From a virus (lineage: Duplodnaviria > Caudoviricetes), in the IMG/VR virus record IMGVR_UViG_3300047160_018490, positions 1 to 64,000 of that record: 64,000 nucleotides of DNA. One strand, given 5' to 3'. Positions 45,037 through 64,000 of this stretch are shown piece after piece; position 1 is the first letter of the stretch; every line of letters starts with the position of its first letter. The position numbers were made by a program, and so were the translations under genes. The notes beneath the pieces were generated by a model. The model had not been told where the DNA came from. It made no database searches and saw only the letters and a list, made by a program, of their open reading frames with translations.

Positions 45037-46962
45037 TCAGGCTCTTCCCCCTGTGACTTGCATGATCTTCCTCCCCAGGGCCTGGATACGGGCGAGGACT
45101 TCAGGGGCGATCCTTCCCTTCACGGGGCGCCTCCGAGGAAGTGCTCTCCTTCCTGTACCCTTGCAGATGCGGCAGCCAGCTCCCTTGCAGGTGGCGCACT
45201 TGTCCATCTCGCCATCCCCTTCTTCCATGTCCTTCACCTCCTCAGCGAGGTTGGCAGGAGAGGGGCGCCTCTCCCTGGGGTTCATGAGGCCACCAGAGGG
45301 CCACCCAGGGATGACATCCTTCAGCTCCTCGGGGTTGCCCTCATCTTGCAAGTTTACCCCCGCGCCCATCCCCTGGCGGAGAGCAGCCTCTCCTGGGTCT
45401 TCCAGGTTCTCGCCAGCGCCCATGCCTTGCCTCAGGAGGGCCTCTCCCGGGTTCTGGAGGTGCTCTACCTCCTTCAGCTCATCCGGGTTGCCTTCGTCCT
45501 CCAGGTGGGCTCCTGCACCCATTCCCTGCCTCAGGGCGGCCTCTCCTGGATCGGGGAGGTTCACGCCTGCCCCCTCTCCCTGGCGAAGGGCGGCCTCACC
45601 AGGGTCTTGCAGATGGGCATCCTGCCGGTCTTCGAGGTCCTTGGGGCGCCCTCTGGCTGGAGCGCCACGAGGGGGGGTCTGCCGCATGGGGACTCCTGGG
45701 CCCTTCTGCCTGATGAGGTAGGGCCGCCCATCCTTTCCCCAGCGAATCCTGTGCTTGAGGATGAACCATTGCAGCGTCTTGGGGTTCTGGTAGCGCTCCA
45801 GGATCTCGTCATCGTCCTCGCTGCCAGGGGCTTCTCCAGCTCCACCTCCTGCGCCACCACCAGGAGGCTGATGCCCTTCCAGAGCTTCCTCTTCAGGAGT
45901 CTCCTCCCCTGCGAAAGGCTGGGCGTCACCGTGACCTCCCTCTCCCTGGTTGGTATCGAGGTCGCTGCTTCCAGGGGGCGCTGCACTTCCCTGTCCTTCA
46001 GGAGTATCTCTTCCTCTCTCCAGCTCCTCGATGGCTGCTCTCTCGATGGCCTCCAGCTCGGCCATCTGCTGCGGGTCCAGGTTACCTGCACCTGCCGCTC
46101 CCTGATCTTCTCCGCCCTGCACCACGCCATCCTGCTCACCAGGAGGAATTTCTGGCTGCCTCCCCGAGATGCCGAGGTCACCAGGAGGGATCTCTCCCTC
46201 CTCCACGCTGCCTTCTTCCCCTGGGTGGGCCTCATGGCCACCCTTCTCAGGATCGACCTCCAGGGCCTTGGAATACTTGCGCGTGTACCCCTTCTTGGCC
46301 TCTCCTCCAGGGGCGCCGATGCCGTGATGTTCAGAGAGGAGATTGCGCAGATGCTGCATGATGCCAGGGAGCTTGTCTACCCCCAGCTTCTGAAGCTCCT
46401 GAGCGATCTTGGGGTGATCCATCATCGGCAGGATATCCCGGATGTAGTCCACTCCTGTACCCAGGTGGTCGTGCAGGTCTCTGAGGACTCGCGCACTCTG
46501 CTTTACAGGAGTGGAGTCCCCTTTTCCTCCCTGAGAGGGGGTTCCTCCCCGGGGGGAAGGAGGGGTAGAAGGAGCAGGGCCCTTGATCTCATCTGGGGAG
46601 CCTACAGCCTTACCGCGGGTTCTGGTGGTCATCTGCTTGCCCTCTCTTACATTCCGGCCGAAGTGCATCAGTTCATGAGGCTCTGCGGTTGTCTCGTCAC
46701 CCCACTCATCCCAGGAGCTGCGACGGCGGTTGTAGTGCGTCCTTATCTTGATACCACCTTCATGGGGCGGAACGCTATAGACTTCTCCGTACTCACCCCT
46801 GTAAGGGTGGTTTGTACCATAGCGGATATAGACTACATCTTCAGGGTTAAATTCTTGCCCCCCTGCTTCCTCTTCCTCCGGCTGCTTCTCCTGCTCGGGA
46901 GGCCACCTCTCCTCAGGGACCAGGTAACCTCCTGCGGCTCCTGAACTTTCATTGAGGGCCAT
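45037..46962 (-). CDS. scaffold-like head protein with capsid-like N-terminal peptide, KOW/SH3-like domain, tandem repeats and CxxCxGxG finger
   Basis: ATG 46962 after GGAG gives MALNESSGAAGGYLVPEE; 4x (D/N)PGEA(A/L)LRQGxGAG; CATCKGAGCRICKGTG. Confidence 0.75.
   Translation of the reverse strand: MALNESSGAAGGYLVPEERWPPEQEKQPEEEEAGGQEFNPEDVVYIRYGTNHPYRGEYGEVYSVPPHEGGIKIRTHYNRRRSSWDEWGDETTAEPHELMHFGRNVREGKQMTTRTRGKAVGSPDEIKGPAPSTPPSPRGGTPSQGGKGDSTPVKQSARVLRDLHDHLGTGVDYIRDILPMMDHPKIAQELQKLGVDKLPGIMQHLRNLLSEHHGIGAPGGEAKKGYTRKYSKALEVDPEKGGHEAHPGEEGSVEEGEIPPGDLGISGRQPEIPPGEQDGVVQGGEDQGAAGAGNLDPQQMAELEAIERAAIEELERGRDTPEGQGSAAPPGSSDLDTNQGEGGHGDAQPFAGEETPEEEALEGHQPPGGGAGGGAGEAPGSEDDDEILERYQNPKTLQWFILKHRIRWGKDGRPYLIRQKGPGVPMRQTPPRGAPARGRPKDLEDRQDAHLQDPGEAALRQGEGAGVNLPDPGEAALRQGMGAGAHLEDEGNPDELKEVEHLQNPGEALLRQGMGAGENLEDPGEAALRQGMGAGVNLQDEGNPEELKDVIPGWPSGGLMNPRERRPSPANLAEEVKDMEEGDGEMDKCATCKGAGCRICKGTGRRALPRRRPVKGRIAPEVLARIQALGRKIMQVTGGRA
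45317..45620 (-). repeat. intragenic tandem peptide repeats
   Basis: DPGEAALRQG(E/M)GAG-like x4 and DEGNP(D/E)ELK x2. Confidence 0.8.
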
Positions 46963-46963
46963 C

Positions 46964-49900
46964 TTATTCTTCTCCATAAAGATACCCATGAGGCAGGTGC
47001 TCATAGAATGCAGCAATACTAGTCCTTGCCTCCTGGGTCAACTCATGCCAGGGGCGAGGGTAATTAGGATGGTTGGGGTCCTGAATGGGGTGGGCAGCCC
47101 TCGCGTTCTCCCAGCGAGTCATGGGATCTGGCTCGGCGTCGTTATGATATTCCTCTTCTGGCTGCTTCTCTACATCCCCTTCTAGAGCGTTCTCCTCCTC
47201 CTCTCCTCCCTCACCGAAAAGGGCGCCATGAGGTAGATGAGAGTAGAGGTCTGCTATGTGCCCTCTCTCACCTTGAGGCATCCTGTCCCAGGCAGCTCCG
47301 GGACCAATCTCTGGGTAATGCTCGGCCAGGTACTCACTGGCTCTTCCATACCTCTCCGAGGGGTCGTTGTAGGGAGTCTCCGCGGGGAGGTGTTCTTCCT
47401 CCTCTTCTCCCTCTGCCTTCTCCCACTCCTCCCAGTAGGGATCTACCTTCTCCCCGGGGGAAGAGGAAGGAGGATGTTCCCACTCCTCCCAGTAGGGCTC
47501 GGAAGTAGGAGGCTTGGGGTTTCTGGCGTCATGCTCCCACGCCTCGTAGTAGGGATCGTGGGCGGCCTTCTCCTCCTCTTCTGGCTCTACCGTATGTTCA
47601 GAAGGATGAGGCCCTGGGTCGCCTACCATCTGGAAATACTGGCGGTTGGATTGTCTCTCTCCCTGAGACAAACCTTCCCAGGGAGTAAGAGGATGTTGAG
47701 GATGCTGCTCTTCCCAGTAGCGCCTGTGAGACTCCCACCTCTCTTCAGGAGACCTGGGAGGGGGGTTAGAAGACTGCTTCTCCTCGTCTTCCACTCCCTC
47801 GTAGTATTCCTCACGCTCAAACGGCCCTGGGGTATGCTCCTCCCATTCGGGGTATTCCTCGTCCTCTGAGGCTTCAGAATGGTGCCTGGGGGTTGGTAGA
47901 GGGTGTCTGCAGCCTTCATGGTATCCCTGAGACATCTCGCTCCAGGTGGGGCGCACATGGACCCCTGGATTCAGCGCCTCCCGGTCTATGTCATGACGCC
48001 TGTGAGTTTCCCATACCTCATCCGGGGTGATACTGGCTTTTCCCTCCTCCAGAAATCTCTCATGCTCGCCTGGTTGATATTCCTCCCACTCAGGATACTC
48101 CAGGTGAGAGGGGTGTTCGGAGTGGTGGGCGGGTTCTGGATGAAAACCAGTCTCCGGGCTAACCCCTTGCAGGACATCTCTACCAGTTTGGGAAATTTCC
48201 TCCCAGGGCTCGCGGGGGCCGAAGTAGCCTATAGGATGGCGTCTTCGGAAGGATTCATACCAGTCATCGAGAGAACGGGGTGCCTTCTCCTCCTCAAAGT
48301 CCGAGACTACAGTAGCCTCCGCCCTGTGAGGACCCTCGTCCTCCTCGTGCGCGTACCTTGTAGCCTGACGGTCGCGGGTAGACTGCGAGAGTCCTTCCCA
48401 GGGCCTACCCTCTGACCCAGTCCTTCCATACCTCTCCTGGCTCTGATGGCGGGAGGTCTGGTAGCGCTCATCAGGAGTGCGGGGAGCTTTCTCTTCCTCT
48501 TCAGGGTATGCCCACTCAGGAGGCTCATTCTCTCCCAGAGGGCTTCCCCTCTCCCCTTCTCCTTCTTCCTCTTCTGGGGGGGTGTCCTCATCGTAGGGGT
48601 CCACGTAGCCAGTATGCTGTCTCAGTCCAGCGTAATAGTCCCGCAAGTTTTGGTTGAGGTCACGCCAGTGGAGGCCGGTGGTTCCCCTTCTCCTGGCAGA
48701 TTCCCACGCCTCGTCATGGGATCGGGGAGCTTTCTCTTCCTCAAGTGGCTCCCACTCAGGGTACTCCTGAATTTCGCTTTGCTCTGAGGGGTGGAAGCCA
48801 GGGTCCCTTACCATACCAGGCACGAGATCCCTCTGACCCTGGGTGAGATTCTCCCATTTTCTACCGCTGCCACTGCCTCTATCCTCTCTATATCTCCTCT
48901 CAGACTCCCACACCTCATCAGGAGCACGGCGGAAGGGCTGGCCTTCTTCCTTCCTCCTCTCCAGCCTCGCCTTCAGCCTCCTGTATTGCGGAGCTACCTT
49001 CTCCCCGATACCAGGTATCTGCTCGTTGATGCCAGGGCGAATATGAGCGGGAGGGCGAAGAGGAGCATCCTCTGCCTCGTTGATGGTCCTACCACGATTA
49101 AGCTCATCAGCATGTGCCTGAGCCTCCGCAAGAGTGTCGTGGTCCCCAGCGGAGCCAAAGAAGTAGGGGTGTTCCGGGTCAAATGTCCCCTCGGGGCCGA
49201 AGTGGGGGTGGAACTCGGTGGGGTAGACTCCATATCTCCCTGGCTGCTCGTGGTGTGGGCGAGCTTCATAGTAGGGGGCGCCTGGGTTGGCTGTAATGGC
49301 AGGATTCCCCTCTGGCTGCTTCTGTACCCCCTTCTCTGCGTCCAGCCTCCTGTAGCCAGCAGAGTGGGCCAGTTGGTAGTGCATGTCCCCAATCCAGTCA
49401 TTGGCCTCATCAATGTTTTGGGCAACGAAGACGGGATCATGGGTCATCCCTGCTGGGTGCTGGGGAGAGCGGTGGACATCAAAGGTGCCTGGCTCATCCT
49501 CTCTCTCTACCATGTGATACCAGGTCGCCGGCCTGCCTGTGCGGAGGTCGTGGATGGCCTTCCCCTCGATGCCAGGGAGCTGCTCATTCCTCGCCGGTCT
49601 GTTCTGGACCCCTCTTCCACGCCTGGCCCTCGCAGTCCCTGTCATCGTGGCCCACATTCCCTCCTGGAGCCTCCGGGCATGGGCATGGGCCTCCTCGGCA
49701 GTCTGATGCGGTGGGAGCGGGTTCTGCGGGTTTTCTATGTTACGGCGAAGAGGATGGTGCTCGGAGGGGGTGACAGCATGAGCCCCTTCCTCAGTGGGCT
49801 CAACATCCCAGTAAGGGTGCCCAGGGTTGGCCGTTACTACCGCGCCCTGCTCCTCCTCTCCTTCCACCTTGGGGGCCTTTTCCACCCCTTCTTCCAGAGC

Positions 49901-52900
49901 GTTTTCCTCTTCTTCAGGGGGTAAATGGAGATCGGGGTCCTCGTACATGCTTTCGTAATTACGCGCAATACCACCAGCATACTCTTCCGTCATGGGGCCA
50001 GTAACTGGGCCTTCTCCGTGGGAATGAAACGCTGGGTGTTCCCGCGTTCGATAGACGCTGTAGCGCCCTGGGCGAACTGGTGATAGCCTGGTCTCGTAGA
50101 ACCTGAGTTCTCCTGTCTTGGGGTCCGCCTTCTCTTCCACCCCCTCCAGACCCTTGTTGGGCTTCTCCCCTGCCTCCTCCAGCGAGGAGTAGCACACGCG
50201 ATGGGCTTTCCCCGCGTCTGCACCCTCTGCTTCCAGATCAGCGATGCAGCGCTCCATCCTCTCCGTGTGGTAGTGGTGGGGGTGCTCCACGTTGGGCTTC
50301 CGGATCTCTTCCCCTTCGAGGTCTTTCTCTTCCTCTGCTGGGTTGAGAGGAGTGCAGTTAGGAGAGAGGTGCGCCATCCGGTTGATGGACTCCTGGGCCC
50401 GCTGGTTCTGCCTCTCTGCCTCCTCTTCTGCCTCTGCCTGCGTGCAGTGGAGAGACCACCCCACTCCTGTACGGCGGGATGCTACCTGGTAAAGCTCCGG
50501 CTGCTCCTCGCTGGGGCGGACGTAGAAGTGTCCTGGGCTCTCTTCTCCTCCTTCTGCCTTCTCCCGGGGAATAGGAGATACCCTGTTCTCGTAGGGGTGG
50601 TTGAGGTCAGGGTTGTGACCCACCAGGAAGCGGTACGCAACACCTTGGACGCGCTTCCCTGTCTTGGGATCTACTGCTTTCTCCTCCTTACCCTGATCCC
50701 ACGCCTGGAAATACTGCTCGCCAGTCCAATGCCCTCTACCAGGATTGTCTGTATAGCGGTCAGCATGGGCATTCAACTCATCCGCTCGCTGCTGGGCTTC
50801 TTCGAGTTCATATCGGCCCACGTCGCGGTTTCCATCTGGATCGACAAGGGAGTGCGTGCCATCCTCATTGGGCACAACCCTCCAGTGGAGTGATTGCTTC
50901 CTTCTCTGCAAGCGGTCCCACAGCCTCTTGCACTTCTTCTCCGCGATGGTGCCACTCTCATCCTCTGGCACCTCCGTCTGATCTCCCCACTTCTCGAACT
51001 CCCTGACCTTCTCTGCTTCTGCCTCCGCCTCCGCCTGCGTCTGGTGAGAAGAGGTAAACCACACCTCCCCGTTGGCCCGTGTGTGCCGCACCAGGTAGGG
51101 ATACACCGTCCTCCCTGGGCGGTAGATGACATCTACCTTCTTCTCCACTTCCAGTTCAGGAGTGTCCCCAGTTTCGATGTCCGAGCCCTCTCCAGGGTTA
51201 GTCTCGGGAGGGATGCCTGTTCTATCAATCTCTCCAGGAGTGCCCCTTCCTGCTTCCATGTCGGCCTGGTTGGCGTCCTTCTCAGAGGGGTGAGGTGTCT
51301 CGTCTACTACTCCCATACTCCCGTGCCGCCAATTCAATTGGCTTGTGCAGTACCTTACCTCCTCTGGGGTGGCAGCGTAGTAGACATGCCTACCAGTGCG
51401 GGCATGAACGATCTCATAAGGGAGGTGCTCTATACCCGTTCTCCTGGCCTCGTAGAGGGGCTCGTCCTGGCCTGTAAGGGGGTCTTCTGTACTGTCCTTC
51501 TCTTCAGGAGCAGGGAGGTTGACTCTCGGGTTATCGGGCCCTTGCAGCTCGCCACTCATGATCCTCTGGTGGGCAGCCTCCTGGTAATCGCGGGCCATAT
51601 CCTCCGCTTCCCAGTGGGGGTGGAGGTGAGATGCCAGGCGCCCTCTACCGCCCTCTGGATGAGATCCAGTCCTATATAGAGCGTCGAAGTCCTCAATGCT
51701 GGGATGCTCCCGCAGTTCATAGAAGGGCTCCATCTTCTCCCCCGTCTTGGGGTCCAGGGCCTTCTCCTCCCTCTCCGGCTCCATCTGGTACCGCGGTGGC
51801 GTGCCTTCGGTATCCCGGACCCACTGGCGGTTTTCCTCTGCATGCCTGTCCTGCATTGCCAGCTCGTCCAGGGAGTTCTCGGCAAACTGCTCTACCTGCC
51901 TGTGGGCCTCTTCAGGAGTACGGAACCCCCCTGTGCGCAATCCAGCCTGTCCTAGAGGGTGCTGCTCCGTGCGGACGATCTGGTAGGCGCCAGGGATGTG
52001 TGGGTCCTCCTCCACGCGCCACCAGGGATGATTCTGCTTCTTCATCTCCTTGTTAGGCGCCCAGATCGTCTCCAGCAGGTTCTCCTCCGCAATGTGAGCA
52101 ATCGTCTCCGCCTCGTGCTGCGTCCTGTAGCCAGTCAGGCTTCTCGCATCCCTGCCCTCGGGGTGGAACATGGTAGGGATGACATCGAAGGTCCCTGGGT
52201 TCTCCTCGCTCTCCTGGACGTGGTAGAAGGACTTTTCCACTGCTCCTGAGAGAGCATTCTCCTCCTCTGCAGGGATGTTGGCCGCCTCCGTCCTCTGCTG
52301 GCTTACCAGATTGGCGTAGTGCCTCCTGGTGGCTTCCTGCTGCCTGGCGTGCTGAGTGGCCCATCTCGCTCCGGCGGCGGCCTCCTCATGAGATGTGTAG
52401 CCACCAAAGCCTGAGTAGCGCCCTGCCCTGCCATGAGGATGGTGCTCCGAGTAGTGAAGGTCATACCTCTCAGGGTCGTCCTCGTTCTGCTGCACCGTGA
52501 ACCAGGGAGGAGAGGTGTCTTTACTCACACTACCTCCTGCAACCTTCTGGCTCTCTTCCCAGGTAGCCTGATCCATACGGGACTGGACGGTGTCCTCGTG
52601 CATATCTCTGGCAAGTTCCCTGGCCTCTTCCGGAGTGAGGTGTCTGTGCGGTACTCGGTCTGAGGGATATTGGTGGATATTGGGGTGGTCAGGGGTCCGA
52701 AAGATCCGTGGGCGCCCGTTTTCGTCCCTGACTCCGTAGTAGGGCTTATCGTGGAAGCCCTTCTCCTCCTCATTCCTTCTGTGGATGTCCTCTGTCCTCA
52801 GAGAGACATTCTCTGCGAGCTGTGCCTGGATGCGGTCTATGACTTCCTGGGCCTCCTGAGTGGAGGTGTAAGGGCCACCACCCCAGATGGGCTTGCCCTG

Positions 52901-55900
52901 ATGGTCTCTGCCACCCAAGGGGTGCTCGTCCGTCCTCCAGATGTCATGGGTGCCTGGTACGTTGGGGCGCTCCACAATCTTGTACCAGGGCGGGCGGTCT
53001 TTTCTCACTCCTGAAGAGAGGGCATCCTCGTGGTGCTGTGGGGCATCCCACTGCTCGGGGTCTTCATTTCTAGACCATTCCAGTTGCCGTAACCCGGCTT
53101 CGGCACTGGCTTCCTCCCTGGAGTCACGGGTTGTGAGGGGGTAAGACATCAGTCCAGGAGTGGCGTAGGGATGGTGCTCACTCCTGTAGACTCCCCATCT
53201 CCCTTCAGGGGTCTGGCGGACGTGGAAGTAGCGGTATCCTTTCTCCACTCCTTCGGAGAGGGCATGTGTAACAGGAAGACCATGTCCATGACCGAGGTCA
53301 TCCGTTCTTACCTTCTCCAGGTCCTGTGCGCCATCCAGGGCGTCTTCCTCGGTGTCATAGCGGGTGGGTCCCACGGGAATGGTTTGATCCCCAGACTGGA
53401 AGAAGGGATGAGACTCAGTGCGGAAGATTCCATAACCCTCCTGATAGGGCTTGACCTCGAAGAAACCCTTCTCCACTCCTGAAGAGAGAGCAGCCTGCAA
53501 GTATTGAGGTGGGGGATGGTGTAGCGCCCTATCTTTGATACTCTCCGTTGTATCTTCCACCAGAGACTGAGCCTCTTCCCTGCTTCCCAGGAGGTAAGTG
53601 TTTACCCGCATTCCAGGTCTTCCCCAGGGATGGTGTGCAGTACGGTAAACACTCCAAAAAGTCGGGTGGTCCTCGTCTTCCCGTGCCTCGTACCACGGGC
53701 CTTGCTTCTCCACCCTCTCCTCTAACCCCCTTGCTATCCTTTCCCCCGGGGGAAGCATGGAGAATGGATGCTCTCTGGGGTTGCCTGTGCCTCTGGGGGC
53801 GTCATCATACTCCGGGCCCAAAGACTCCATGTGCCTGGCCCAGTCTCTGGCCTCTCCGTGATCCAGGAAGGAGAGATGAGAGTGCCTCACTCCTGAAGGG
53901 GAGACAACCTGGAAGTGACCCATATCCGGGTCATGCTCCACGCTCCACTTACCGGATGGTTTGTCTTCTATTGGAGGGACGTAGGGGGCGGTGGCGCCTG
54001 TGCTCTCTTCTTCCTTTCCTTTCTCCACACCTCCAGAGAGGGAGTTCTCCTCGACCTGGAGAGGGATGTCACTGATCCCTGGTTCTTCTTCACCGCGCCA
54101 CAGGTCGTACTGTCTCTGCCCAGCAGCGATCCAGGCATCCTCGTGGCTGGCATGGGTGGAGAGAGGCGCCTCATCAGGCCCATGAGGGCCGTATGGGTGG
54201 CGCCCACTTCGGTAGACTCCATACCCTCCTTCTGGGGTTGGGAGGACCAGGTAGTGGCTGTAGTTCTTCTCCACCTCTTCTCCCTGATAGACGATGGAGC
54301 CGTATGTGCCCTCAGAAGGCTCCGTCTGGCCGCCGAGGGAGTTCTCCTCGATGTCCGGAACATTCACGCCCCTGTTTTTTCCCTCCTTGTACCAACCATC
54401 TACTGCGTCCTGGAGTCTGTCTGCTCTCTCCTGCTGCTCTTCCAGAGTGTTGGGACGGAAGGGGGTTATTCCCTCTCCCATAGGATGGTGCTCAGTACGA
54501 TATAGCAGGTACAGCTTACCACCTGGGTTCTGTACAATCCGGTAGTAGGGCCTCTGGAGGGCTTTCTCCACTCCCTCCAGGGCGTCCTCCAGATCCATCC
54601 TCTCCATGAGGGTCCTGTGTGTCTGATCGTGCAGCCTCTGGGCTTCTTCCTCGGCAAGACCCTGGGTGGTATGGTCTGGAGACTCGGGAGAGGAGAGTCT
54701 TCCCTTGGGGTGGTAGGAAGACCTCCATACGTCGTAGTTCCCAGCCGGGCGCTGGTGGACCTCGTAGAAGTAGTGTGGGGATAGGTCCTTCTCCACACTG
54801 CCTTCCAGGGCATTCTCCTCATAGGCTGGAAGGCCCTGCCCCATGCCCAATCTCTCTGTCTGCATCCTCACCTCGCTAGCCGTTAGCTCGCGTGCCATGT
54901 CGTGGGCAGAACCCTCCTCAAGGCCTCCGATGATAACCATTCCTGCGTCACCACCTGGGTGGGTGGCAGAGCGGCGGACCTCGAACTGACCCTGGCGCCG
55001 GCCTTCGTGGACCTCATAGTAAGAAGGTGGTTCAGGAGTACCCTCATCTTTCTGCACACCTCCCTCCAGAGCGTGCTGCACAGGAGGGGTGTAGGGGAGG
55101 CCCTGACTCTGGCCTGCCCAGTCTGTCTCTATGCTACGAGAGCGTGCAAACCTTCTCGTCCTCTCCTGTGCGTCTGCCTCTGCCTGCTCTGGATCCTGGA
55201 AGTGGGTGATCCTGGCCTCTCCATAAGGGTGCTGGGAGGTACGCCACACCTCATGCCTCTCCCCTCTGGAGCGGACCTCGTAAAGGGGAGGAACTCCGGT
55301 GTCTTTCTCCACCCACCCAGAGAGGGAGTGCTGCACAAGGGGTGTAGGTGGTAGACCCTGCTCTCTTCCCAGTCTGGACGTGTCCATGTTCTGGTAGCGA
55401 GTGGCCCCCAGACGGTAAATATCACTTATAGTCCTGGCACGTTCGCCTGCCTCTTCCTGGGTTGAGTAAGGACCCATACCAAGGTCCTCCCCACGAGAGG
55501 GAGCGTAGGGGTGCTCCTGAGAGCGGCGAACACGCCATCCTTCTCCCTCCACCTCGTAGGGCTCATAGAACTGGGGGAGCTTCTCCAGGGCGGTGGCTAC
55601 CTCCTCAGGAGTGGCACCAGCTTTCTCTATACTTCCTTCCAGGGAGTATTGCTGTATGTGAGGGGGTTGGTTGACTGGTAGACCCTGGTTTTGCCCCAGT
55701 TCGTCTGTCAGTCTCCGCTCCCACCTTCCTGCGTAGTGCCTGGCATCCTCTTCCAGGTGAAACCTGGCCAGGGGGGAGTCTCCGTGTTCGCCAACCATCG
55801 AGGTTGCATTCCAGGGGTGGTTTGCTGTCCGGAAGACGCCATAGCCGCCCGCATGCGGGCGGACCTCGTAGAAGGACTTTTCCACGCTGCCTTCCAGGGC

Positions 55901-56131
55901 GTTCTCCTCTGGAGCTGGTGTCCTCCGGTGGCCGCCTTGGTTCACGTTTGCCTTGTCCTCATCCTCGTAGCTCTCATCGAGCTGCCTGGCTGCTTCCCTT
56001 GCAGCATCCTGCCCCCAGCGTGCAGGAAAGACCATGCTCTCCCCCATATAATGCAGGGCCGTCCTCCAGACCTCCCAGCGCCCTGCTTCCTGGTTGTAAC
56101 GAGGCTCATAGGTAGGAGATGCTTCACTCAT
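46964..56131 (-). CDS. giant acidic tandem-module protein (3055 aa), putative processed internal head polyprotein
   Basis: about 26 family-A modules (YEV...Y.V.R[ST]..HP...T.EEA..A) and about 8 family-B modules, separated by ALEGxVEK/EEEK linkers; ATGA coupling to the protease gene. Confidence 0.85.
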   Translation of the reverse strand: MSEASPTYEPRYNQEAGRWEVWRTALHYMGESMVFPARWGQDAAREAARQLDESYEDEDKANVNQGGHRRTPAPEENALEGSVEKSFYEVRPHAGGYGVFRTANHPWNATSMVGEHGDSPLARFHLEEDARHYAGRWERRLTDELGQNQGLPVNQPPHIQQYSLEGSIEKAGATPEEVATALEKLPQFYEPYEVEGEGWRVRRSQEHPYAPSRGEDLGMGPYSTQEEAGERARTISDIYRLGATRYQNMDTSRLGREQGLPPTPLVQHSLSGWVEKDTGVPPLYEVRSRGERHEVWRTSQHPYGEARITHFQDPEQAEADAQERTRRFARSRSIETDWAGQSQGLPYTPPVQHALEGGVQKDEGTPEPPSYYEVHEGRRQGQFEVRRSATHPGGDAGMVIIGGLEEGSAHDMARELTASEVRMQTERLGMGQGLPAYEENALEGSVEKDLSPHYFYEVHQRPAGNYDVWRSSYHPKGRLSSPESPDHTTQGLAEEEAQRLHDQTHRTLMERMDLEDALEGVEKALQRPYYRIVQNPGGKLYLLYRTEHHPMGEGITPFRPNTLEEQQERADRLQDAVDGWYKEGKNRGVNVPDIEENSLGGQTEPSEGTYGSIVYQGEEVEKNYSHYLVLPTPEGGYGVYRSGRHPYGPHGPDEAPLSTHASHEDAWIAAGQRQYDLWRGEEEPGISDIPLQVEENSLSGGVEKGKEEESTGATAPYVPPIEDKPSGKWSVEHDPDMGHFQVVSPSGVRHSHLSFLDHGEARDWARHMESLGPEYDDAPRGTGNPREHPFSMLPPGERIARGLEERVEKQGPWYEAREDEDHPTFWSVYRTAHHPWGRPGMRVNTYLLGSREEAQSLVEDTTESIKDRALHHPPPQYLQAALSSGVEKGFFEVKPYQEGYGIFRTESHPFFQSGDQTIPVGPTRYDTEEDALDGAQDLEKVRTDDLGHGHGLPVTHALSEGVEKGYRYFHVRQTPEGRWGVYRSEHHPYATPGLMSYPLTTRDSREEASAEAGLRQLEWSRNEDPEQWDAPQHHEDALSSGVRKDRPPWYKIVERPNVPGTHDIWRTDEHPLGGRDHQGKPIWGGGPYTSTQEAQEVIDRIQAQLAENVSLRTEDIHRRNEEEKGFHDKPYYGVRDENGRPRIFRTPDHPNIHQYPSDRVPHRHLTPEEARELARDMHEDTVQSRMDQATWEESQKVAGGSVSKDTSPPWFTVQQNEDDPERYDLHYSEHHPHGRAGRYSGFGGYTSHEEAAAGARWATQHARQQEATRRHYANLVSQQRTEAANIPAEEENALSGAVEKSFYHVQESEENPGTFDVIPTMFHPEGRDARSLTGYRTQHEAETIAHIAEENLLETIWAPNKEMKKQNHPWWRVEEDPHIPGAYQIVRTEQHPLGQAGLRTGGFRTPEEAHRQVEQFAENSLDELAMQDRHAEENRQWVRDTEGTPPRYQMEPEREEKALDPKTGEKMEPFYELREHPSIEDFDALYRTGSHPEGGRGRLASHLHPHWEAEDMARDYQEAAHQRIMSGELQGPDNPRVNLPAPEEKDSTEDPLTGQDEPLYEARRTGIEHLPYEIVHARTGRHVYYAATPEEVRYCTSQLNWRHGSMGVVDETPHPSEKDANQADMEAGRGTPGEIDRTGIPPETNPGEGSDIETGDTPELEVEKKVDVIYRPGRTVYPYLVRHTRANGEVWFTSSHQTQAEAEAEAEKVREFEKWGDQTEVPEDESGTIAEKKCKRLWDRLQRRKQSLHWRVVPNEDGTHSLVDPDGNRDVGRYELEEAQQRADELNAHADRYTDNPGRGHWTGEQYFQAWDQGKEEKAVDPKTGKRVQGVAYRFLVGHNPDLNHPYENRVSPIPREKAEGGEESPGHFYVRPSEEQPELYQVASRRTGVGWSLHCTQAEAEEEAERQNQRAQESINRMAHLSPNCTPLNPAEEEKDLEGEEIRKPNVEHPHHYHTERMERCIADLEAEGADAGKAHRVCYSSLEEAGEKPNKGLEGVEEKADPKTGELRFYETRLSPVRPGRYSVYRTREHPAFHSHGEGPVTGPMTEEYAGGIARNYESMYEDPDLHLPPEEEENALEEGVEKAPKVEGEEEQGAVVTANPGHPYWDVEPTEEGAHAVTPSEHHPLRRNIENPQNPLPPHQTAEEAHAHARRLQEGMWATMTGTARARRGRGVQNRPARNEQLPGIEGKAIHDLRTGRPATWYHMVEREDEPGTFDVHRSPQHPAGMTHDPVFVAQNIDEANDWIGDMHYQLAHSAGYRRLDAEKGVQKQPEGNPAITANPGAPYYEARPHHEQPGRYGVYPTEFHPHFGPEGTFDPEHPYFFGSAGDHDTLAEAQAHADELNRGRTINEAEDAPLRPPAHIRPGINEQIPGIGEKVAPQYRRLKARLERRKEEGQPFRRAPDEVWESERRYREDRGSGSGRKWENLTQGQRDLVPGMVRDPGFHPSEQSEIQEYPEWEPLEEEKAPRSHDEAWESARRRGTTGLHWRDLNQNLRDYYAGLRQHTGYVDPYDEDTPPEEEEGEGERGSPLGENEPPEWAYPEEEEKAPRTPDERYQTSRHQSQERYGRTGSEGRPWEGLSQSTRDRQATRYAHEEDEGPHRAEATVVSDFEEEKAPRSLDDWYESFRRRHPIGYFGPREPWEEISQTGRDVLQGVSPETGFHPEPAHHSEHPSHLEYPEWEEYQPGEHERFLEEGKASITPDEVWETHRRHDIDREALNPGVHVRPTWSEMSQGYHEGCRHPLPTPRHHSEASEDEEYPEWEEHTPGPFEREEYYEGVEDEEKQSSNPPPRSPEERWESHRRYWEEQHPQHPLTPWEGLSQGERQSNRQYFQMVGDPGPHPSEHTVEPEEEEKAAHDPYYEAWEHDARNPKPPTSEPYWEEWEHPPSSSPGEKVDPYWEEWEKAEGEEEEEHLPAETPYNDPSERYGRASEYLAEHYPEIGPGAAWDRMPQGERGHIADLYSHLPHGALFGEGGEEEENALEGDVEKQPEEEYHNDAEPDPMTRWENARAAHPIQDPNHPNYPRPWHELTQEARTSIAAFYEHLPHGYLYGEE

Positions 56132-59100
56132 ACCCCTATCCTCCTTGCGAGGGCCTCGATGCGATGGAGGAGTTCAGGAGAGAAGGCTTTATCAGATGGC
56201 TTTGGGGTTTCTCTGTACTGCCGGTTGTGACGCTCCACCCAGTCCAGGAGCCCACCCAGGTGACTCGACTGTGACCACAAGGCTTCACCACTGGGCCTGT
56301 GGATGATCTGGTAGAGGCCACTCAGGTGAGACTCCTCATGGGGACGCACCTCGTAAATGTCCTCTGGGTCCTCTACCCAGGTAATATCTTTGGGGTCCAC
56401 CTTCTCTATGCTCTTCTCCTCCTCCACCTCTCTCTGAAGGCTCCTGATGGTTGCGCCTGGGCCCTGGGGGATTTCCTCTGCCCGCAGAGGTCTCCTTCTT
56501 GGGGCGCCTCCTCCTGCTTGCGGTAGAGGAGGAGGAAGAGAAGCAGGAGAAGGAGGTGGAGTCTTCTCTGGGGCGCGCCTATTCGTGTGCAGGAGGAGGT
56601 TACTCGCTGCCTGGTTGTGCAAGTGGCTTACGTAGGAGTTGGCCCTATCCAGGGTGTCAGTCCTTACAGCCGGCTCATCACTGGCGCCCATAGGGTGATG
56701 TTCACTCCGGTGAATCCCGTACCCACCTTCTGGGTGGTCCCTTACCTCGTAGTAGGGCATCTCCGGTGGCCCTGGCTTCGATGCTGTGGACGGTTGTGGA
56801 GGCTCTTCTCCCTGACCCGCGCCCACGTCAAAGGGCGCGTCCTCAGGGTTCTGATGCACGAGCGCTGTGGGCTTGGCTGGACGGCGGGGTAGTGGTGGCG
56901 GTCCCTTCTGCAAGCTCTTCATGGTCTCTGCCTCTGTAGTGAGCTTGTTTGCCAGGGCCCTCTGGAGGCGGTCCCTGTTCTCTTCTGCTCTGTACCAGTC
57001 CGTCCACGCTCCTACGGGTGGGCCACCAGTAGGGGGTGCTCCTGAAGGGTGATTGGAGGTCCTGAAGACCCCGAAGCGGTCGTTCTCCGTGGGATGGGGG
57101 AGGACCTCATAGAGGGCGGGGAAGTCCTTCTGGATGGCCTTGTGGTACTCGGCGGTATCGGCTGTCTCATCAACGTAATTGGCATGGAGTCCCCTGGCAA
57201 ATCGGTGAGCCTCCTCTTCCGTTCCCGTATCTAGGATCGGATACCCCTCTCCAACACCGTAGGGGTGGCTTTCCGTGCGGTAGACACCAAACTTACCATT
57301 CTTCATAGGGCGGACCTCATAGTAGAGGGCCTTCCTGGCTGCCTTATGCTCTTCCTCCCGGACAGTGCGCAGGTTCATGTAACGGGCGTGCATTGCGCGG
57401 GCATACTCTGCAGCCTGTGCCTCATGATCCGTCTGATAGACCGGCGCCTCTTCAGGACCCCAAGGGTGAGTGTCTGTACGATAAACTCCATACAGGGGAG
57501 GGTCATCATTGGTAGAGCGGACCTCGTAGATGAGTTTCTTCCTCACTCCCTTTTCAGGAGTAGACTCTCCTCCCTCCCATGCCCGCAGAGTGCCTGGGGC
57601 GTCCCAGTAGGCACAGCAATTCCTCTTGTTGACTGGCTGACCCTTGATGCGCTTCTCCTGGCAGATGCCGCCCTGGTTGTACTGGCAGTTACCGCAGTTG
57701 CTGCCCTCCACTCCTTCCCCGTAGGTGATGAAGTCCGCCGCCTGTAGAGCTTCAGAGGAGACCTGGGGAAGCTCGCCACCCTGGGTATCGAGGGCCTTCC
57801 TCGTTTCACTTGGAGAGCCTTCGGCGGACTTCCCGATCTCGTCAAGGATAGCGTGTGTATCTAGATAGCGAGCATGAAGACGCCTGGCTTCTGCGTAGGC
57901 TTCCTCCTCCGAGTGTGTTTCATAGATGGCATAAGGGTACTGCTGCTGCTGCGGGTGGCTTGGCGAGCGGTGGACTCTGTAAAGGGTAGAGCCCTCATCA
58001 GGAGGCCGCACCTCGTAGATGAGGGCCTTCTCCACCACATCCTTCTTGCAAGGGCATGCCTTCCCCCTGGAGCAATTCTTGCAGCCGCAGGAGCCCTTGA
58101 AATGTTTTGGAATGCGGTGGAGGAACCCTGGATTGTTCTCTGAGTGCTCTCCTACAGGGTCCTCGCTCTCTTCAGGATGGGGAATAAGATCCTCTGGAGG
58201 GTCTATACCCTGAAGTGCTTCCCCAAACGTGGGAGACCTTGTGTCACCTTCCAGCCTGGCCAGTTCCCGAGAACGCCGAGCTATCCTAGCCTCCTCGGAT
58301 GCAGAGGTATACTGAGGATCATATACCCAGTCTCTTGGGTGTCCGGACCCGAAAGCCCATTCCCTTTCATCTGTGGCAAAACCTTCTGGGGTGTATTCGT
58401 TATGATGAGGTCCCACCCCTTCTGGCCTGTCTGCCTTTCTTAAACCTTTCTTGTCCTCTCCAGAAGTAGGAGGGTCCACATCACCTTCCAGCACCTCTCT
58501 CGCTTGCATCTCCCGAGAACGCTGATTGATGCGAGCCCTTTCACTAGCCATGCTGATTGGGGGAATATCGTGGCGCCATTCCTCTGGATTGGGGCCATAG
58601 GGAGGGTGCCAGTCCCAATCTTCCTCATGCTCACCAACAGTGCCCCATTCCGGGTCGTGCTCTGGCCTCCCTATCTCGTTGGGGTCTGGCTCAGGCTCAG
58701 AGGCCGCCTTCTCCTCGGGACCCTCTATCTTGTCCAGGTCCTCGGCCCTTCGGTTGATCCTCTCCATCTCCTCTTCAGGAGTACCCTTGGGATCACGCTG
58801 CCACTGGTGAGAAGAGGACTCTCCGTAATCCCTGCTGGCCCGATCTGCGGTTGCCTGTGCCTGCTCCAGAGTAGTGCCAGGTGGCTGAGGTATGTCGTGT
58901 CCATACTCAGTGTGTCTGATGTAGGTCCCGCCATTTGGGTACTGCCCCGCAGCCCAGCGCCCCTTCTGGAGGTCCTTCTCCTCCTCCTCGATGGGTCTCC
59001 CCTGCTCGTCTGTATCTTCCACAGCCCTCAGTGTCCCTGAGAGACGGTTTATCCTCTCCGTCTCTGCTTCATGAGTGGTGGGTGGTGCATTCCCCCCAAT

Positions 59101-62100
59101 GAACTCGAATGCTCCAGCCATGTGCCTCTGGTTCCCGCGATCTGCCTGCTGTTCTGCGGCTTCCTGGTTGGCAATGCCCTCATGGACTCGATTGCCAGTG
59201 TAGGTGTCCTGTATGTACCACTGGCCGGTGCCATCGTTGTAGGGTTGAGCCCTGTAGCGAGGAGCCTTTCTCACAGCCTTCTCCTCGGGCTCACTTTCAT
59301 CCAGCTCCTCTGAGTGGCGTGCAACCCTCTCTGCCTCCTCCTGGGGACTACTCAATGGCTCTCCCTGCCAGGAGGAGGCCGGGTGAGATTCCATCTCGTG
59401 GAGCTTGTTAGCCCTGTCTGCACTGGCCTGGGCTGCCTCTCTCCCTCCTGGGTGAGGGTGGTTCCAACCTGTGTGTGAGTCATGGATGACAGTCCCGTGC
59501 CGCGGGTGGTCCTGAACTATGTAACGCTGCTTCTCTACCACCCCTCTCTCAAAAGGGGAGGGGCCCTCTCTTCTCCCTCTCTTCAGGCCCTTCGCCATCA
59601 CCCCAGGGTAGCCCAGCCTTCCTCTCTCCCCGCGAGAGCGAAGGGGGTTGTAGTTGCTGCCCTCCAGTTGCAGCCTCGTGATGAGTTCCTTCTGCTCCTC
59701 CACCTTCTTGAGGGCCTCCATGAGGGCCTTCTCAGGAGGTAGCCCATCGTGCTCTGAGAGGGACTCAGCAAACTTGGCAAGCTCGTAGCAGTGTGCTCCG
59801 GAATAGCCTTCCGTCTTCGCCACCGCATGAGAGAGATGTTTAGGTGTGACCTTGGGCAGCCACTTCCTCAGCATCTCACTCCTGGCCTTCACCGTGGGGA
59901 GCCCAAACTCCAGCACGTCATGGAACCTCCCAGGGCGGTCAATGAGGGCATCTGGAAGGGACTCAGGGAAGTTGGTCGTTAGTACGGTAAGGACACCCTT
60001 GCTCCTTGCAATACCGTCCATCTCCGTCTTGAGGAGGTCGATGGTGGTGGGGTGAAGCCAGTTGTCAACGTCCTCCATGCAGATGATGGCCGGTGCCAGT
60101 TCCTTCGCCATCTCGAAGGCACTACCAATACCACCTACACTCCCAGCGGCGTGGAAGTCCCTGCTAGAGATCCAGATGAACGTGCCCTTGCTCTTGTTGC
60201 GCAGCACCCGCGAGGACATCGTCTTGCCAGTGCCTGGAGGGCCGGTAAGGATCACGCCTCTGTTGGCAAAGAGGATGCCCTTCTCATTGAAGAGATCCAA
60301 TGTCCTTCTAAGGGAGGTCTTGTTGTGCTCCTCCAGGAAGACATCGTCCCAACCCTCCTCCGTGCGGGGGAGAAACTCCCCTGAAAGAGAGAAGGCTTCT
60401 CCTTTGAGGAAGTTATTCTCCCTCGCCCAGGTCCATGCTTTATCAATCACCTCCTGAGAGATGGGAGCTTCCTGAAGTCTGGTAAAGGCAGTCACCTTCA
60501 GCCCGTTCCAGGTGGGCTCGAACTTCAGGACGAACTTCTCTCCACTACCTCGAAAGGCGTTGTGAGGCCCTCTACCTTTCTCCTGGTAGAGAGGGCTTCT
60601 TCCCAGGATGCCCTTCCTGATCTGCAATGGCATGCCCCTCTTGATAGGAAGCATCCCCTCGAAGAAGGCTGTCCCCTGCACGAGGAAGGTATCTCTTTGG
60701 GTGGAGTTGAGCTGGATGGTCTCGTAGACAGGGGGCGCCTCCATGCCCTTGCTCTGGTAGCCCTCCTGGAAGTTCCTCACCTCTACCAGCTTGTACCCAG
60801 AGACTGCGTGCTTGAGGCCAGTGAGGAAGGAGCCCAGTCTGGGAGAGGGAATGAGGGCGGTGTTCTGGACGAGGTCCTTTATCTCACATCCCAGGTACTT
60901 GGCCGCCACCCGGTAGATGACAGAAGCACCCACAGGAGGGGCATCCTCCATCTCCACTCCTGTATCGAAGGAGTCGAAGATAGAAGGGAGGGCCTTGTTC
61001 CAGCGCTCCCTTTTCCTTACCTCTCTCCCGGGGGAAATAGCATGCTCATGGTGTGGCTCATCACCCCAGTTGTACTCCTCTTCCTCCTCGGGGTCGAAGT
61101 GAGACATCCCCCCTTCCATTGCATCACTGGCACAGTCGTCACAGAAGTGCGCCTGGTCACTGGGCTCATCGTACTGGGGGTTGTACATGCGGGTGGTAGC
61201 AGGCCGGGTGCAGGCTCCTGAATGGTGGGGGCAGCCTGGGTCGTCACACTCGCAGGTTCCGAGGTTCTCATGTTCAGGAGTGTGTTGACCTCTGGAGCGC
61301 AGGAGTTGCTCCTCACCCTCGATGGGGATGGCGCCCTTCTCTACCTGCTTCTGAATGCAGGAAGAGGGGGAAGACTCCTGACCTTTCGTAACGATGGTGC
61401 TGCAAGGGACGCAGACGCCGCTGGGAGTCTCGCACCATCCATTCCAGCAACCAGATGCCTTTGCACAGTAGGGGAGCCACGCCTTCTGAAGCCTGGGAGA
61501 CATCCAGACCTTCTCCTGGTCATAAGCGTCCCTGATGGCTCCCTGGTTGCTTCCTACCCCTACCACAGACCATTCTGTAACGTCATACCTCTTGAAGAGC
61601 CACCCAGGCGGCATGAGAGGAGGATGCTGCGGGTGGGCCTTCCCGCTATCGAAGTCCTTCAGACCATAGTGCTCTCCTCGCTCCCTCCTGTAGGCTTCGA
61701 TGGGCACGAAGGCGATGCTGGCAGCGGAGAGTATCCTTCTCTTCACCTTGCCATAGATGAAGTCCGCATCCGGATCAGCGCGATCAAAGTAGCCTACTGC
61801 ACGTATCCGGTTCTCTTCAGGATAGACAGTGATGCGCCCATCGGGGGAGCGAGATACTCCAATAGGGATCTCCCACCCCTGCTGCTGGTGGCCGAAGAAG
61901 ATGACCGGGTTGCGTGCGTAGTTCTCCAGTTGGGCGCCCAGAGGCACCACCACGTCACCATCCCTATCCTCATCCAGGTTGGTGATGACGAAGGGGATGC
62001 TGCCTTCGTCATCGTTTGCTTCCCCTGGGAGAGCAGCTCCTGGAGTAACGAGGCCGAGGGTGTTTTCCTTCCCAAGCTGGACCCAGGAGTAGGCGGAGAG

Positions 62101-62235
62101 GGCCTTGGGAAGGGAAATGACCCCCCTCCGCGTCATCTCCTGGAGGGAGGTGTAGCGGTCCTGAACCTTGTCAATGACTGGGTGGAGGATAATAGGAGAG
62201 CCCTCAAGGAGAAAAGTGGGCAAAGAGGCTCGCAC
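56128..62235 (-). CDS. HK97-type prohead protease fused to AAA+ ATPase and repeated cargo-like modules (2035 aa)
   Basis: VITNLDEDRDGD, NPVIFFGH, AASIAF, EWSVV...N (protease His/Ser); GPPGTGKT, ICMEDVD, TTNFPESLPDALIDRPGRF (AAA); start codon uncertain. Confidence 0.9.
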   Translation of the reverse strand: MRASLPTFLLEGSPIILHPVIDKVQDRYTSLQEMTRRGVISLPKALSAYSWVQLGKENTLGLVTPGAALPGEANDDEGSIPFVITNLDEDRDGDVVVPLGAQLENYARNPVIFFGHQQQGWEIPIGVSRSPDGRITVYPEENRIRAVGYFDRADPDADFIYGKVKRRILSAASIAFVPIEAYRRERGEHYGLKDFDSGKAHPQHPPLMPPGWLFKRYDVTEWSVVGVGSNQGAIRDAYDQEKVWMSPRLQKAWLPYCAKASGCWNGWCETPSGVCVPCSTIVTKGQESSPSSCIQKQVEKGAIPIEGEEQLLRSRGQHTPEHENLGTCECDDPGCPHHSGACTRPATTRMYNPQYDEPSDQAHFCDDCASDAMEGGMSHFDPEEEEEYNWGDEPHHEHAISPGREVRKRERWNKALPSIFDSFDTGVEMEDAPPVGASVIYRVAAKYLGCEIKDLVQNTALIPSPRLGSFLTGLKHAVSGYKLVEVRNFQEGYQSKGMEAPPVYETIQLNSTQRDTFLVQGTAFFEGMLPIKRGMPLQIRKGILGRSPLYQEKGRGPHNAFRGSGEKFVLKFEPTWNGLKVTAFTRLQEAPISQEVIDKAWTWARENNFLKGEAFSLSGEFLPRTEEGWDDVFLEEHNKTSLRRTLDLFNEKGILFANRGVILTGPPGTGKTMSSRVLRNKSKGTFIWISSRDFHAAGSVGGIGSAFEMAKELAPAIICMEDVDNWLHPTTIDLLKTEMDGIARSKGVLTVLTTNFPESLPDALIDRPGRFHDVLEFGLPTVKARSEMLRKWLPKVTPKHLSHAVAKTEGYSGAHCYELAKFAESLSEHDGLPPEKALMEALKKVEEQKELITRLQLEGSNYNPLRSRGERGRLGYPGVMAKGLKRGRREGPSPFERGVVEKQRYIVQDHPRHGTVIHDSHTGWNHPHPGGREAAQASADRANKLHEMESHPASSWQGEPLSSPQEEAERVARHSEELDESEPEEKAVRKAPRYRAQPYNDGTGQWYIQDTYTGNRVHEGIANQEAAEQQADRGNQRHMAGAFEFIGGNAPPTTHEAETERINRLSGTLRAVEDTDEQGRPIEEEEKDLQKGRWAAGQYPNGGTYIRHTEYGHDIPQPPGTTLEQAQATADRASRDYGESSSHQWQRDPKGTPEEEMERINRRAEDLDKIEGPEEKAASEPEPDPNEIGRPEHDPEWGTVGEHEEDWDWHPPYGPNPEEWRHDIPPISMASERARINQRSREMQAREVLEGDVDPPTSGEDKKGLRKADRPEGVGPHHNEYTPEGFATDEREWAFGSGHPRDWVYDPQYTSASEEARIARRSRELARLEGDTRSPTFGEALQGIDPPEDLIPHPEESEDPVGEHSENNPGFLHRIPKHFKGSCGCKNCSRGKACPCKKDVVEKALIYEVRPPDEGSTLYRVHRSPSHPQQQQYPYAIYETHSEEEAYAEARRLHARYLDTHAILDEIGKSAEGSPSETRKALDTQGGELPQVSSEALQAADFITYGEGVEGSNCGNCQYNQGGICQEKRIKGQPVNKRNCCAYWDAPGTLRAWEGGESTPEKGVRKKLIYEVRSTNDDPPLYGVYRTDTHPWGPEEAPVYQTDHEAQAAEYARAMHARYMNLRTVREEEHKAARKALYYEVRPMKNGKFGVYRTESHPYGVGEGYPILDTGTEEEAHRFARGLHANYVDETADTAEYHKAIQKDFPALYEVLPHPTENDRFGVFRTSNHPSGAPPTGGPPVGAWTDWYRAEENRDRLQRALANKLTTEAETMKSLQKGPPPLPRRPAKPTALVHQNPEDAPFDVGAGQGEEPPQPSTASKPGPPEMPYYEVRDHPEGGYGIHRSEHHPMGASDEPAVRTDTLDRANSYVSHLHNQAASNLLLHTNRRAPEKTPPPSPASLPPPLPQAGGGAPRRRPLRAEEIPQGPGATIRSLQREVEEEKSIEKVDPKDITWVEDPEDIYEVRPHEESHLSGLYQIIHRPSGEALWSQSSHLGGLLDWVERHNRQYRETPKPSDKAFSPELLHRIEALARRIGV

Positions 62236-63999: not shown

Positions 64000-64000
64000 G

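Follow-up and report, generated by a model that had tools for sequence, protein, structure and literature searches.

A putative head-assembly polyprotein system, led by a prohead protease and carrying an array of lysine-poor modules, in an uncultured soil phage

Introduction

What are three giant open reading frames (ORFs), which together take up about one-fifth of a phage genome, doing between the portal and capsid genes? We addressed this question for an uncultured tailed soil phage with a highly diverged gene set, IMG/VR record IMGVR_UViG_3300047160_018490. The DNA that we analysed, referred to here as the window, comprises positions 1-64,000 of its single 77.9-kb contig, which has no terminal repeat. 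An earlier annotation, made from the DNA letters alone and referred to here as the sequence-only reading, described ORF1, ORF2 and ORF3 as a polyprotein that is processed by its own prohead protease to release a library of small proteins, which are then ejected with the DNA. Our analysis of the encoded proteins and of their relatives indicates that the ORF1-3 proteins probably enter the prohead, where the protease cuts them apart at their linkers. We also lean, with less assurance, towards the fuller reading that ORF1-3 constitute one head-assembly polyprotein system whose modules are cut apart in the head, survive and, provisionally, are retained there.

Results

Three coupled ORFs begin with a prohead protease

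ORF1 and ORF2 overlap in the sequence ATGA, with AGGAGG 8 nt upstream. ORF3 starts at an ATG at position 46962, 1 nt past the ORF2 stop codon, with GGAG upstream, giving a product of 641 amino acids (aa). These ribosome-binding sites, the ATGA overlap and the minus-strand coordinates (Table 1) bear out the sequence-only reading of three coupled giant ORFs of 2035, 3055 and 641 aa. Since homology between ORF1 and its relatives reaches further upstream than Met34, the start codon chosen in the database, the true start of ORF1 must lie upstream of that position. We considered a programmed -1 frameshift at the ORF1/ORF2 overlap and rejected it as unsupported; a slippery heptamer is absent, and the ribosome-binding site of ORF2 is strong.

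The prohead protease that had been proposed for the start of the giant ORFs was found by several approaches. The domain matches phrog_80 ("head maturation protease") with an E-value of 1.2e-8, and an hhalign comparison of a four-member family profile with HK97 gp4 spans 113 columns with a probability of 67.5% and an E-value of 5e-5. The catalytic residues of HK97 gp4, H65 and S114, align with His116 and Ser173 of ORF1, and both positions are invariant in the four family members. Moreover, PF04586 is recorded on nine homologues of ORF1. We conclude that the N-terminus of ORF1 is, by similarity, an HK97-type serine protease with its His/Ser dyad in place.

The location of the ORFs is that of head-morphogenesis genes. 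The order on the minus strand is large terminase, portal, a 423-aa protein, a J-domain protein, ORF1-3, several small genes and two HK97-fold capsid genes, such that the portal lies on one side of ORF1-3 and the capsid genes on the other; relatives are syntenic.

About 45 small modules follow, most of them copies of an orphan fold

In ORF1, the protease is followed by Cys-rich spacers, a conserved N-domain and an AAA module. Beyond these, the three ORFs contain about 45 small modules in total. To count the most frequent of these, module A, we iterated a hidden Markov model (HMM) from four copies. This identified 27 copies of 50-75 aa with independent E-values between 1e-14 and 1e-22, five of them in ORF1 and 22 in ORF2. 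About nine further units with a degenerate hairpin-plus-helix pattern were recognised only by eye. The figure of about 35 copies in the sequence-only reading is thus a fair count, of which 27 are statistically solid and the rest visual. The roughly eight copies that it gave for a second module, module B, correspond to the eight at ORF2 aa 2379-3055. It had not included five units of about 90 aa in ORF1, which have a single weak match to the module A HMM, nor the Cys-rich mini-modules or four short repeats in ORF3. Scans of ORF2 against Pfam and PHROG gave no match.

Copies of module A are about 24% identical to one another, and neighbouring copies are no closer than distant ones. We detected no tandem repeat at the DNA level in the array. 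Recent tandem duplication and an assembly artefact were both rejected on these grounds; the array must be old or fast-evolving. Contigs identical to parts of the region are present in four soil metagenome runs, as short fragments, which indicates that the sequence is real. All of the soil-metagenome contigs in these sequencing runs are short, none of them spans the array from end to end, and no RNA dataset is among the runs listed.

With the 27 paralogues as an alignment, AlphaFold (AF2) modelled module A with a predicted local distance difference test score (pLDDT) of 87 overall and 97 in the core. The modelled fold combines three strands with a helix of 25 residues, and the linker behind it is of low confidence (52-58). 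Conservation falls on an aromatic residue of strand 1, on Val and Arg of strand 2, on an R-[ST]-x-x-H-P turn, whose His and Pro are present in 26 of the 27 copies, and on an Ala within the helix. Around strand 3 the sequence is hypervariable. Module B was modelled as two helices with moderate confidence (pLDDT 67).

None of our searches placed module A in a family. The best Foldseek match in the PDB was 3bid (E = 0.9), the best match in BFVD had an E-value of 0.09, and scores in the ESM Atlas were below 0.8. A wide VIA-align search reached a Z-score of 4.5 at best, with DUF1508 (3bid, Z 3.5), YaiA and AcrIF4 at Z 3.5-4.5, all of them generic beta-alpha matches. These matches are weak, and on them module A could not be assigned to a YegP/DUF1508-like or other known small beta-alpha fold. 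The sequence-only reading had suggested an HMM search for the module in other genomes; run on 1.84 billion cluster representatives, this search returned no genuine homologue, its one match being a spurious one to a low-complexity repeat protein unrelated to phages. Comparison of the modules with known anti-defence or other families by Pfam, PHROG, fold and profile searches likewise gave no match. In these searches, module A is thus an orphan.

Lysine marks the linkers and is purged from the module cores

The sequence-only reading described the modules as bounded by linkers of the form xEK followed by a small residue. Lys is indeed present in all 20 short linkers, and is preceded by Glu or Gln in 16. 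The residue after Lys, which can be A, D, G, P, V or Q, is not always small, and that part of the description did not hold. The motif [VI]EK occurs 14 times in ORF2, where 0.73 occurrences are expected (about 19-fold enrichment), and is also found at domain borders in ORF1, in the propeptide of the long capsid protein and in the 423-aa protein. Cutting in silico at the linker Lys residues yields fragments that cluster at 70-105 aa.

The cores of the modules have the opposite composition. They contain 7 Lys and 132 Arg residues, as compared with 83 Lys and 114 Arg in the remainder of the array (Fisher p = 8e-16), and their Lys content of 0.5% compares with 1.5-3.3% in the mature capsid proteins. 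Because the purge of Lys from the cores goes far beyond that seen in mature capsid proteins, we suggest that the modules are made to withstand the protease and persist as folded mini-proteins.

A candidate specificity for the protease can be read from the capsid proteins. The scaffold domain of HK97 gp5 ends at residue 103 (PMC10275583). We aligned both capsid proteins of the window with HK97 gp5, taken from NC_002167, and found that each has a Lys within one residue of the HK97 K103/S104 cut (here and below, a slash marks the bond in question), 11 residues before a GGY. The same spacing of Lys and GGY is present in all eight capsid proteins examined (two from the window and six from three relatives), and mid-chain in the polyproteins of five relatives. 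A comparison of the capsid protein with PDB sequences gave no match. The pairing of long and short HK97-fold capsid paralogues is itself kept across the phage family, with propeptides of 145-187 aa and 61-79 aa, respectively (window and relatives' loci L002, L004 and L006).

ORF3 and the relatives suggest a link between the array and the head

We identified relatives of the system among metagenomic proteins; about 50, of 1100-2000 aa, have protease, N-domain and AAA parts. Past the AAA part, these polyproteins carry a few heterogeneous beads and then a mimic of the capsid N-arm, zinc fingers of the DnaJ type, a stretch of acidic residues, a conserved domain and a motif at the C-terminus. ORF3 corresponds to their C-terminal half, and it begins with the N-arm motif, which in the relatives lies inside the polyprotein, following a Lys. 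Met1 of ORF3 thus occupies the P1' position, and the gene therefore appears to be split at a predicted cut site. On sequence grounds, then, the proposal that the polyprotein is processed in the head gains good support from the protease-led chain, the linker Lys residues, the Lys-poor cores, the Lys register of the capsid proteins and the start of ORF3.

A different view of the same pattern is that the giants are never cut, with ORF1-3 acting intact as an internal core, as a conduit for ejection of the kind formed by T7 gp14-16 or as a fibrous protein of the head, and with the distribution of Lys reflecting rules of folding or charge. Large intact internal proteins are known from other phages, the beads of the relatives are not Lys-poor, and the preference of the protease for Lys is a prediction. 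We nevertheless regard this view as highly improbable, given that a protease with an intact dyad is part of the same chain, that the linker Lys residues have been kept while the modules drifted to 24% identity, that ORF3 starts exactly at the homologous Lys/X site, and that the linkers are predicted by modelling to be flexible.

Processing in the head presupposes entry into it, for which ORF1 and ORF3 have candidate signals. ORF3 ends in a motif common to the C-termini of many of the relatives' polyproteins, and ORF1 ends in a truncated copy of it. The extra copy on ORF1 would be as expected if every separate chain needs its own docking signal. ORF2 has neither this motif nor the N-arm mimic, and it has its own ribosome-binding site; it might therefore not be a head component at all, being instead an abundant late cytoplasmic or surface protein (a decoy or sponge in the cell, or an external decoration) that merely lies beside a protease gene. 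Of the readings considered here, this is the one to which we give least credence. ORF2 is translationally coupled on both sides to proteins that appear to be targeted to the head, its modules are paralogous to the ORF1 modules that lie between the protease and the docking-like tail, and its linker code is the same as that of ORF1.

The array sets this phage apart from its relatives. Three relatives' loci consist of a MuF-like gene, the polyprotein, a long capsid gene, a short capsid gene and a methyltransferase gene, with no ORF2-like gene, and none of the approximately 50 related metagenomic phages has a 3055-aa array. The long capsid proteins of these phages are 58-71% identical, yet the relatives have only a few unrelated beads in the place of the array. 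We therefore conclude from these comparisons that the module A array is a lineage-specific expansion. An hhalign comparison of module A with the hairpin-helix beads of the relatives gave a probability of 3%, at which homology is not claimable.

ORF2 found nothing among 5.8 billion proteins when matches of 1680-5347 aa were considered, although ORF2 itself was not recovered either. No longer homologue of ORF1 (3563-5000 aa) was found, which is weak evidence. Close relatives of the array were not found in IMG/VR or in JGI metagenome contigs. The module alignment is too diverged for a pattern scan.

An AAA module that lacks two motifs for threading

The AAA module of ORF1 matches PF00004 with an E-value of 4.8e-16, and its best matches in the PDB are Afg2, Cdc48 and p97 (E = 2e-37). 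Walker A and the Arg-finger motif are present. The Walker B motif has E-D where Afg2 has D-E, a swap that, by eye, is kept in four relatives, and in the window's protein a shorter segment that has no aromatic residue takes the place of the pore-loop K-Y/F-V/L-G. The module is thus, by similarity, a member of the Cdc48/Afg2 clade without two motifs that are needed for threading. These departures suggest a nucleotide-dependent assembly platform rather than an unfoldase.

The fusion of protease and AAA module takes several forms among the relatives, and was not found in GenBank phage records. The distant family members P0036, P0038 and P0039 have AAA and HK97 capsid Pfam domains in one chain of about 1130 aa, with an S78 protease recorded on two of the three. 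In P0036 the order, by eye, is N-domain and AAA, protease, capsid protein, such that each capsid subunit would include the AAA part as a removable piece. Inteins (PF14890) are recorded in the relatives' protease-AAA proteins P0019, P0045, P0046 and P0048.

Positions of features and neighbouring genes

Coordinates of all features are collected in Table 1. The 423-aa protein contains, in addition to its two candidate sites, a duplicated Gly/Arg/Asn-rich unit; the same region in the relatives is occupied by the MuF-like gene. A chaperone theme recurs near the head genes, in the form of the J-domain neighbour of ORF1, the DnaJ-type CxxCxGxG motifs in ORF3 and the relatives, and a Cpn10 in one relative. 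Adjoining the capsid genes is a homologue of plant reversibly glycosylated polypeptide (GT75; PF03214, E = 1e-31), and a glycosyltransferase-like gene lies elsewhere in the window. A 267-aa protein has a G-Y-C-W-A-H-S motif that recalls papain-like cysteine peptidases, and has no match in Pfam or PHROG.

Table 1. Features of the locus, in window coordinates unless marked as genome coordinates.
Feature	Position	Strand	Remarks
ORF1 (P1), 2035 aa	56128..62235	-	Protease, Cys-rich spacers, N-domain and AAA, five units of about 90 aa, five module A copies, one degenerate copy, docking-like tail
HK97-type (S78) prohead protease domain, ORF1 aa ~76-235	61531..62010	-	His116 in FFGH (61888-61899), Ser173 in SIAF (61708-61719)
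Classical-clade AAA module, ORF1 aa ~620-870	59626..60378	-	Walker A 60220-60243; swapped Walker B (EDVD) 60064-60075; Arg-finger motif 59923-59937
Five units of about 90 aa, ORF1 aa 903-1380	58096..59529	-	Hairpin and helix, conserved Arg-rich helix, Lys linker at end of each; by eye and regular expression
Five strong module A copies, ORF1 aa 1406-1896	56548..58020	-	Independent E-values 8e-17 to 3e-21; interrupted by Cys-rich mini-module
ORF1 C-terminal tail	56131..56208	-	Conserved C-terminal motif of the family (presumed capsid docking), in truncated form
ORF2 (P2), 3055 aa	46964..56131	-	Modules and linkers only; isoelectric point (pI) 5.0, net charge about -240
Module A array, ORF2 aa 8-2363	49043..56110	-	22 strong and 4-5 degenerate copies; many linkers with A/S-L-E/S-G...V-E-K
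Module B array, ORF2 aa 2379-3055	46967..48997	-	8 copies of a two-helix unit with acidic tail; 6 of 8 end in E-E/G-K (slash, alternative residues)
ORF3 (P3), 641 aa	45037..46962 (open frame 45037-47016)	-	Equivalent of the C-terminal part of the relatives' single polyprotein
ORF3 N-terminus, copy of mature capsid N-arm	46912..46962	-	In alignment with both capsid proteins, Met1 falls on the residue that follows their predicted cleavage Lys
Four copies of a 13-residue repeat, P-G-E-A-x-L-R-Q-G-x-G-A-G, ORF3	45358-45603	-	
Two adjacent CxxCxGxG (DnaJ-type) zinc-finger motifs, ORF3	45151..45198	-	Longer runs in relatives; PF00684 on P0037
ORF3 C-terminal motif (presumed docking tail)	45040..45120	-	Common to C-termini of many relatives' polyproteins
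Long HK97-fold capsid protein, 517 aa	36378..37931	-	PF05065, E 1e-31; predicted maturation cut K187/T188
Short HK97-fold capsid protein, 384 aa	34918..36072	-	PF05065, E 8e-27; predicted maturation cut K79/A80
J-domain protein, directly upstream of ORF1	62972..63622	-	PF00226, E 3e-20
423-aa gene, between portal and J-domain gene	3' part 63625..64000; extends to 64896 (genome)	-	Two V-E-K/Q-P sites
Portal	64883-67219 (genome)	-	
Large terminase	71080-72480 (genome)	-	
267-aa protein	42182-42985	-	
Reversibly glycosylated polypeptide homologue	33333-34334	-	
Glycosyltransferase-like gene	13790-15118		

Discussion

We propose that the ORF1-3 proteins would be built into the prohead via their docking signals, and that the protease would then cut after Lys, both at the maturation sites of the capsid proteins and in the linkers. 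The products of cutting would be the AAA part, about 35 modules of three strands plus a helix (8-11 kDa each) and about 13 further small units. Rather than being digested, the modules would survive the protease as discrete folded mini-proteins. In the most speculative step, they would be kept in the head and would exit together with the DNA, by analogy with the internal proteins of T4 and the ejection proteins of phiKZ and SPN3US. The purge of Lys from the cores, as read from the sequence, favours retention and ejection.

The last step is also where a sacrificial role has to be considered. The array could be an internal scaffold or space-filler that is cut at its linkers and whose acidic pieces are expelled during DNA packaging, never reaching the host, with the array tuning the core or the kinetics of assembly. 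Such a role would suit the position of the locus, since protease-scaffold genes lie in this interval, with the portal gene on one side and the capsid genes on the other. It would also suit the extremely acidic charge, the scaffold-like docking signals in ORF3 and the relatives, and the lack of an effector-like domain in our Pfam and PHROG scans. The modules are equidistant from one another and seem to be constrained only in the framework of their fold, and in those relatives that join AAA, protease and capsid protein in one chain the N-terminal parts clearly belong to the assembly stage. Nonetheless, we consider a sacrificial scaffold unlikely. A throwaway scaffold should be digestible, yet the cores are purged of Lys; folded domains of 8-11 kDa are, by our own estimate, large for capsid pores; the 187-aa propeptide of the long capsid protein could already serve as scaffold, as in HK97; and close relatives assemble similar capsid proteins (58-71% identity) without such an array.

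Several observations weigh against processing in the head followed by retention of the modules. Some concern the charge of the array: a net charge of about -240 and a pI of 5.0 are typical of scaffolds that are displaced by DNA, so very acidic a composition fits a scaffold leaving the head as well as it fits cargo, and the internal proteins of T4 are basic. Others concern cleavage. Pfam's own S78 model scores below threshold on the ORF1 protein. The polyproteins of the relatives are rich in Lys (6-7.6%), and the protease must therefore need more context than Lys. The depletion of Lys in the cores could have another cause, and the cut could instead fall before the linker sequence A-L-E-G, which resembles the primed side of the capsid site. 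Lastly, ORF2, which holds most of the modules, has neither the C-terminal motif nor the N-arm mimic, so that the reading accounts neither for its route into the head nor for the role of the AAA module in ORF1.

What the modules might do after delivery is a separate matter. To ascribe an anti-defence role to them is sheer conjecture, since none of the modules looks like a known inhibitor. A bolder extension, which we think quite unlikely, is that the array is a self-processing library. About 35 diversified Lys-free mini-proteins, made as one translation unit, would be cut apart by the capsid protease, and hundreds to thousands of copies would enter the cell together with the DNA, there to bind host factors or to act against them as decoys or sponges. 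The R-[ST]-x-x-H-P turn would be the shared framework of this library and the hypervariable third strand its variable part, while the protease-fused AAA hexamer, with its swapped Walker B and without its pore loop, would be a platform under the capsomers. If this were true, it would constitute a new viral way to pack a combinatorial protein payload.

More generally, if the modules are cut out and delivered, the phage has a compact genetic route to load its capsid with dozens of small proteins from one message, and the idea of internal or ejection proteins would come to include a mid-sized HK97-like phage in addition to jumbo and T4-like ones. The combination of Lys-free cores and Lys linkers amounts to a "written" cleavage code that is directly testable. 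The conserved protease-AAA fusion in about 50 uncultured phages, sometimes joined to the capsid protein, suggests that HK97-type head assembly includes a nucleotide-dependent step that has not been described. The orphan module, a confidently folding domain of 50 residues with a variable face, may also interest protein engineers.

Comparison with known systems

The release of head proteins by a prohead protease is already known, as are giant packaged multi-domain proteins (PMC5512222). What is new here is the polyprotein that is led by the S78 protease itself and its fusion to an AAA module, the roughly 35-fold amplification of an orphan fold, and the pattern of Lys exclusion. The sequence-only reading knew of no described system of this scale, and we found none in the literature that we searched.

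A parallel is T4, in which small proteins (IPI-III and Alt) are loaded into the prohead, freed by the head protease gp21 at a short consensus, kept and injected with the DNA (PMC9026906); we propose a similar course here from sequence. The T4 proteins are encoded by separate genes and carry an N-terminal targeting peptide, and gp21 cuts after Glu. The system described here, by contrast, has about 45 modules chained in three ORFs behind an S78-type protease that presumably cuts after Lys, and these modules are mostly acidic paralogues of one orphan fold. The processed T4 protein IPI* is a compact anti-restriction protein of about 8.5 kDa.

The heads of phiKZ and SPN3US contain a large mass of internal protein, including paralogous families, that is cut by the prohead protease and ejected (PMC7411985, PMC10052503, PMC5694885), as we propose here. 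Those are jumbo phages with T4-type proteases, and their internal proteins are much larger and encoded by separate genes, whereas the 78-kb genome studied here would use a polyprotein to make units of 8-11 kDa.

Polyvalent proteins are likewise giant multi-domain proteins encoded among head genes; the proposal is that they are packaged, that a peptidase within the chain processes them, and that they are delivered along with the DNA (Iyer et al. 2017, PMC5512222). They combine 2-15 different, mostly enzymatic effector domains with peptidases of the zincin type (MPTase) (PMC5512222). In ORF1-3, only the protease and the AAA module were recognised by Pfam and PHROG, and the modules are paralogues of two or three orphan units. 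The peptidase, rather than a zincin, is the S78-type prohead protease itself, fused to AAA.

With HK97 gp4 and gp5, the system shares the protease fold, the catalytic His and Ser, the Lys register of the propeptide and the order portal, protease, capsid (PMC10275583). HK97 gp4 differs in being 225 aa long and in having neither an AAA module nor cargo; this protease degrades itself along with the propeptide and leaves nothing in the head. In work attributed to Duda et al. in 2013, the HK97 protease is reportedly carried into the prohead by its C-terminal tail. Lambda C/Nu3 and P2 gpO are protease-scaffold fusions, with the protease at the N-terminus and a C-terminal part that binds the capsid protein. 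Their scaffolds are short and helical, whereas the protease of ORF1 is followed by dozens of folded beads.

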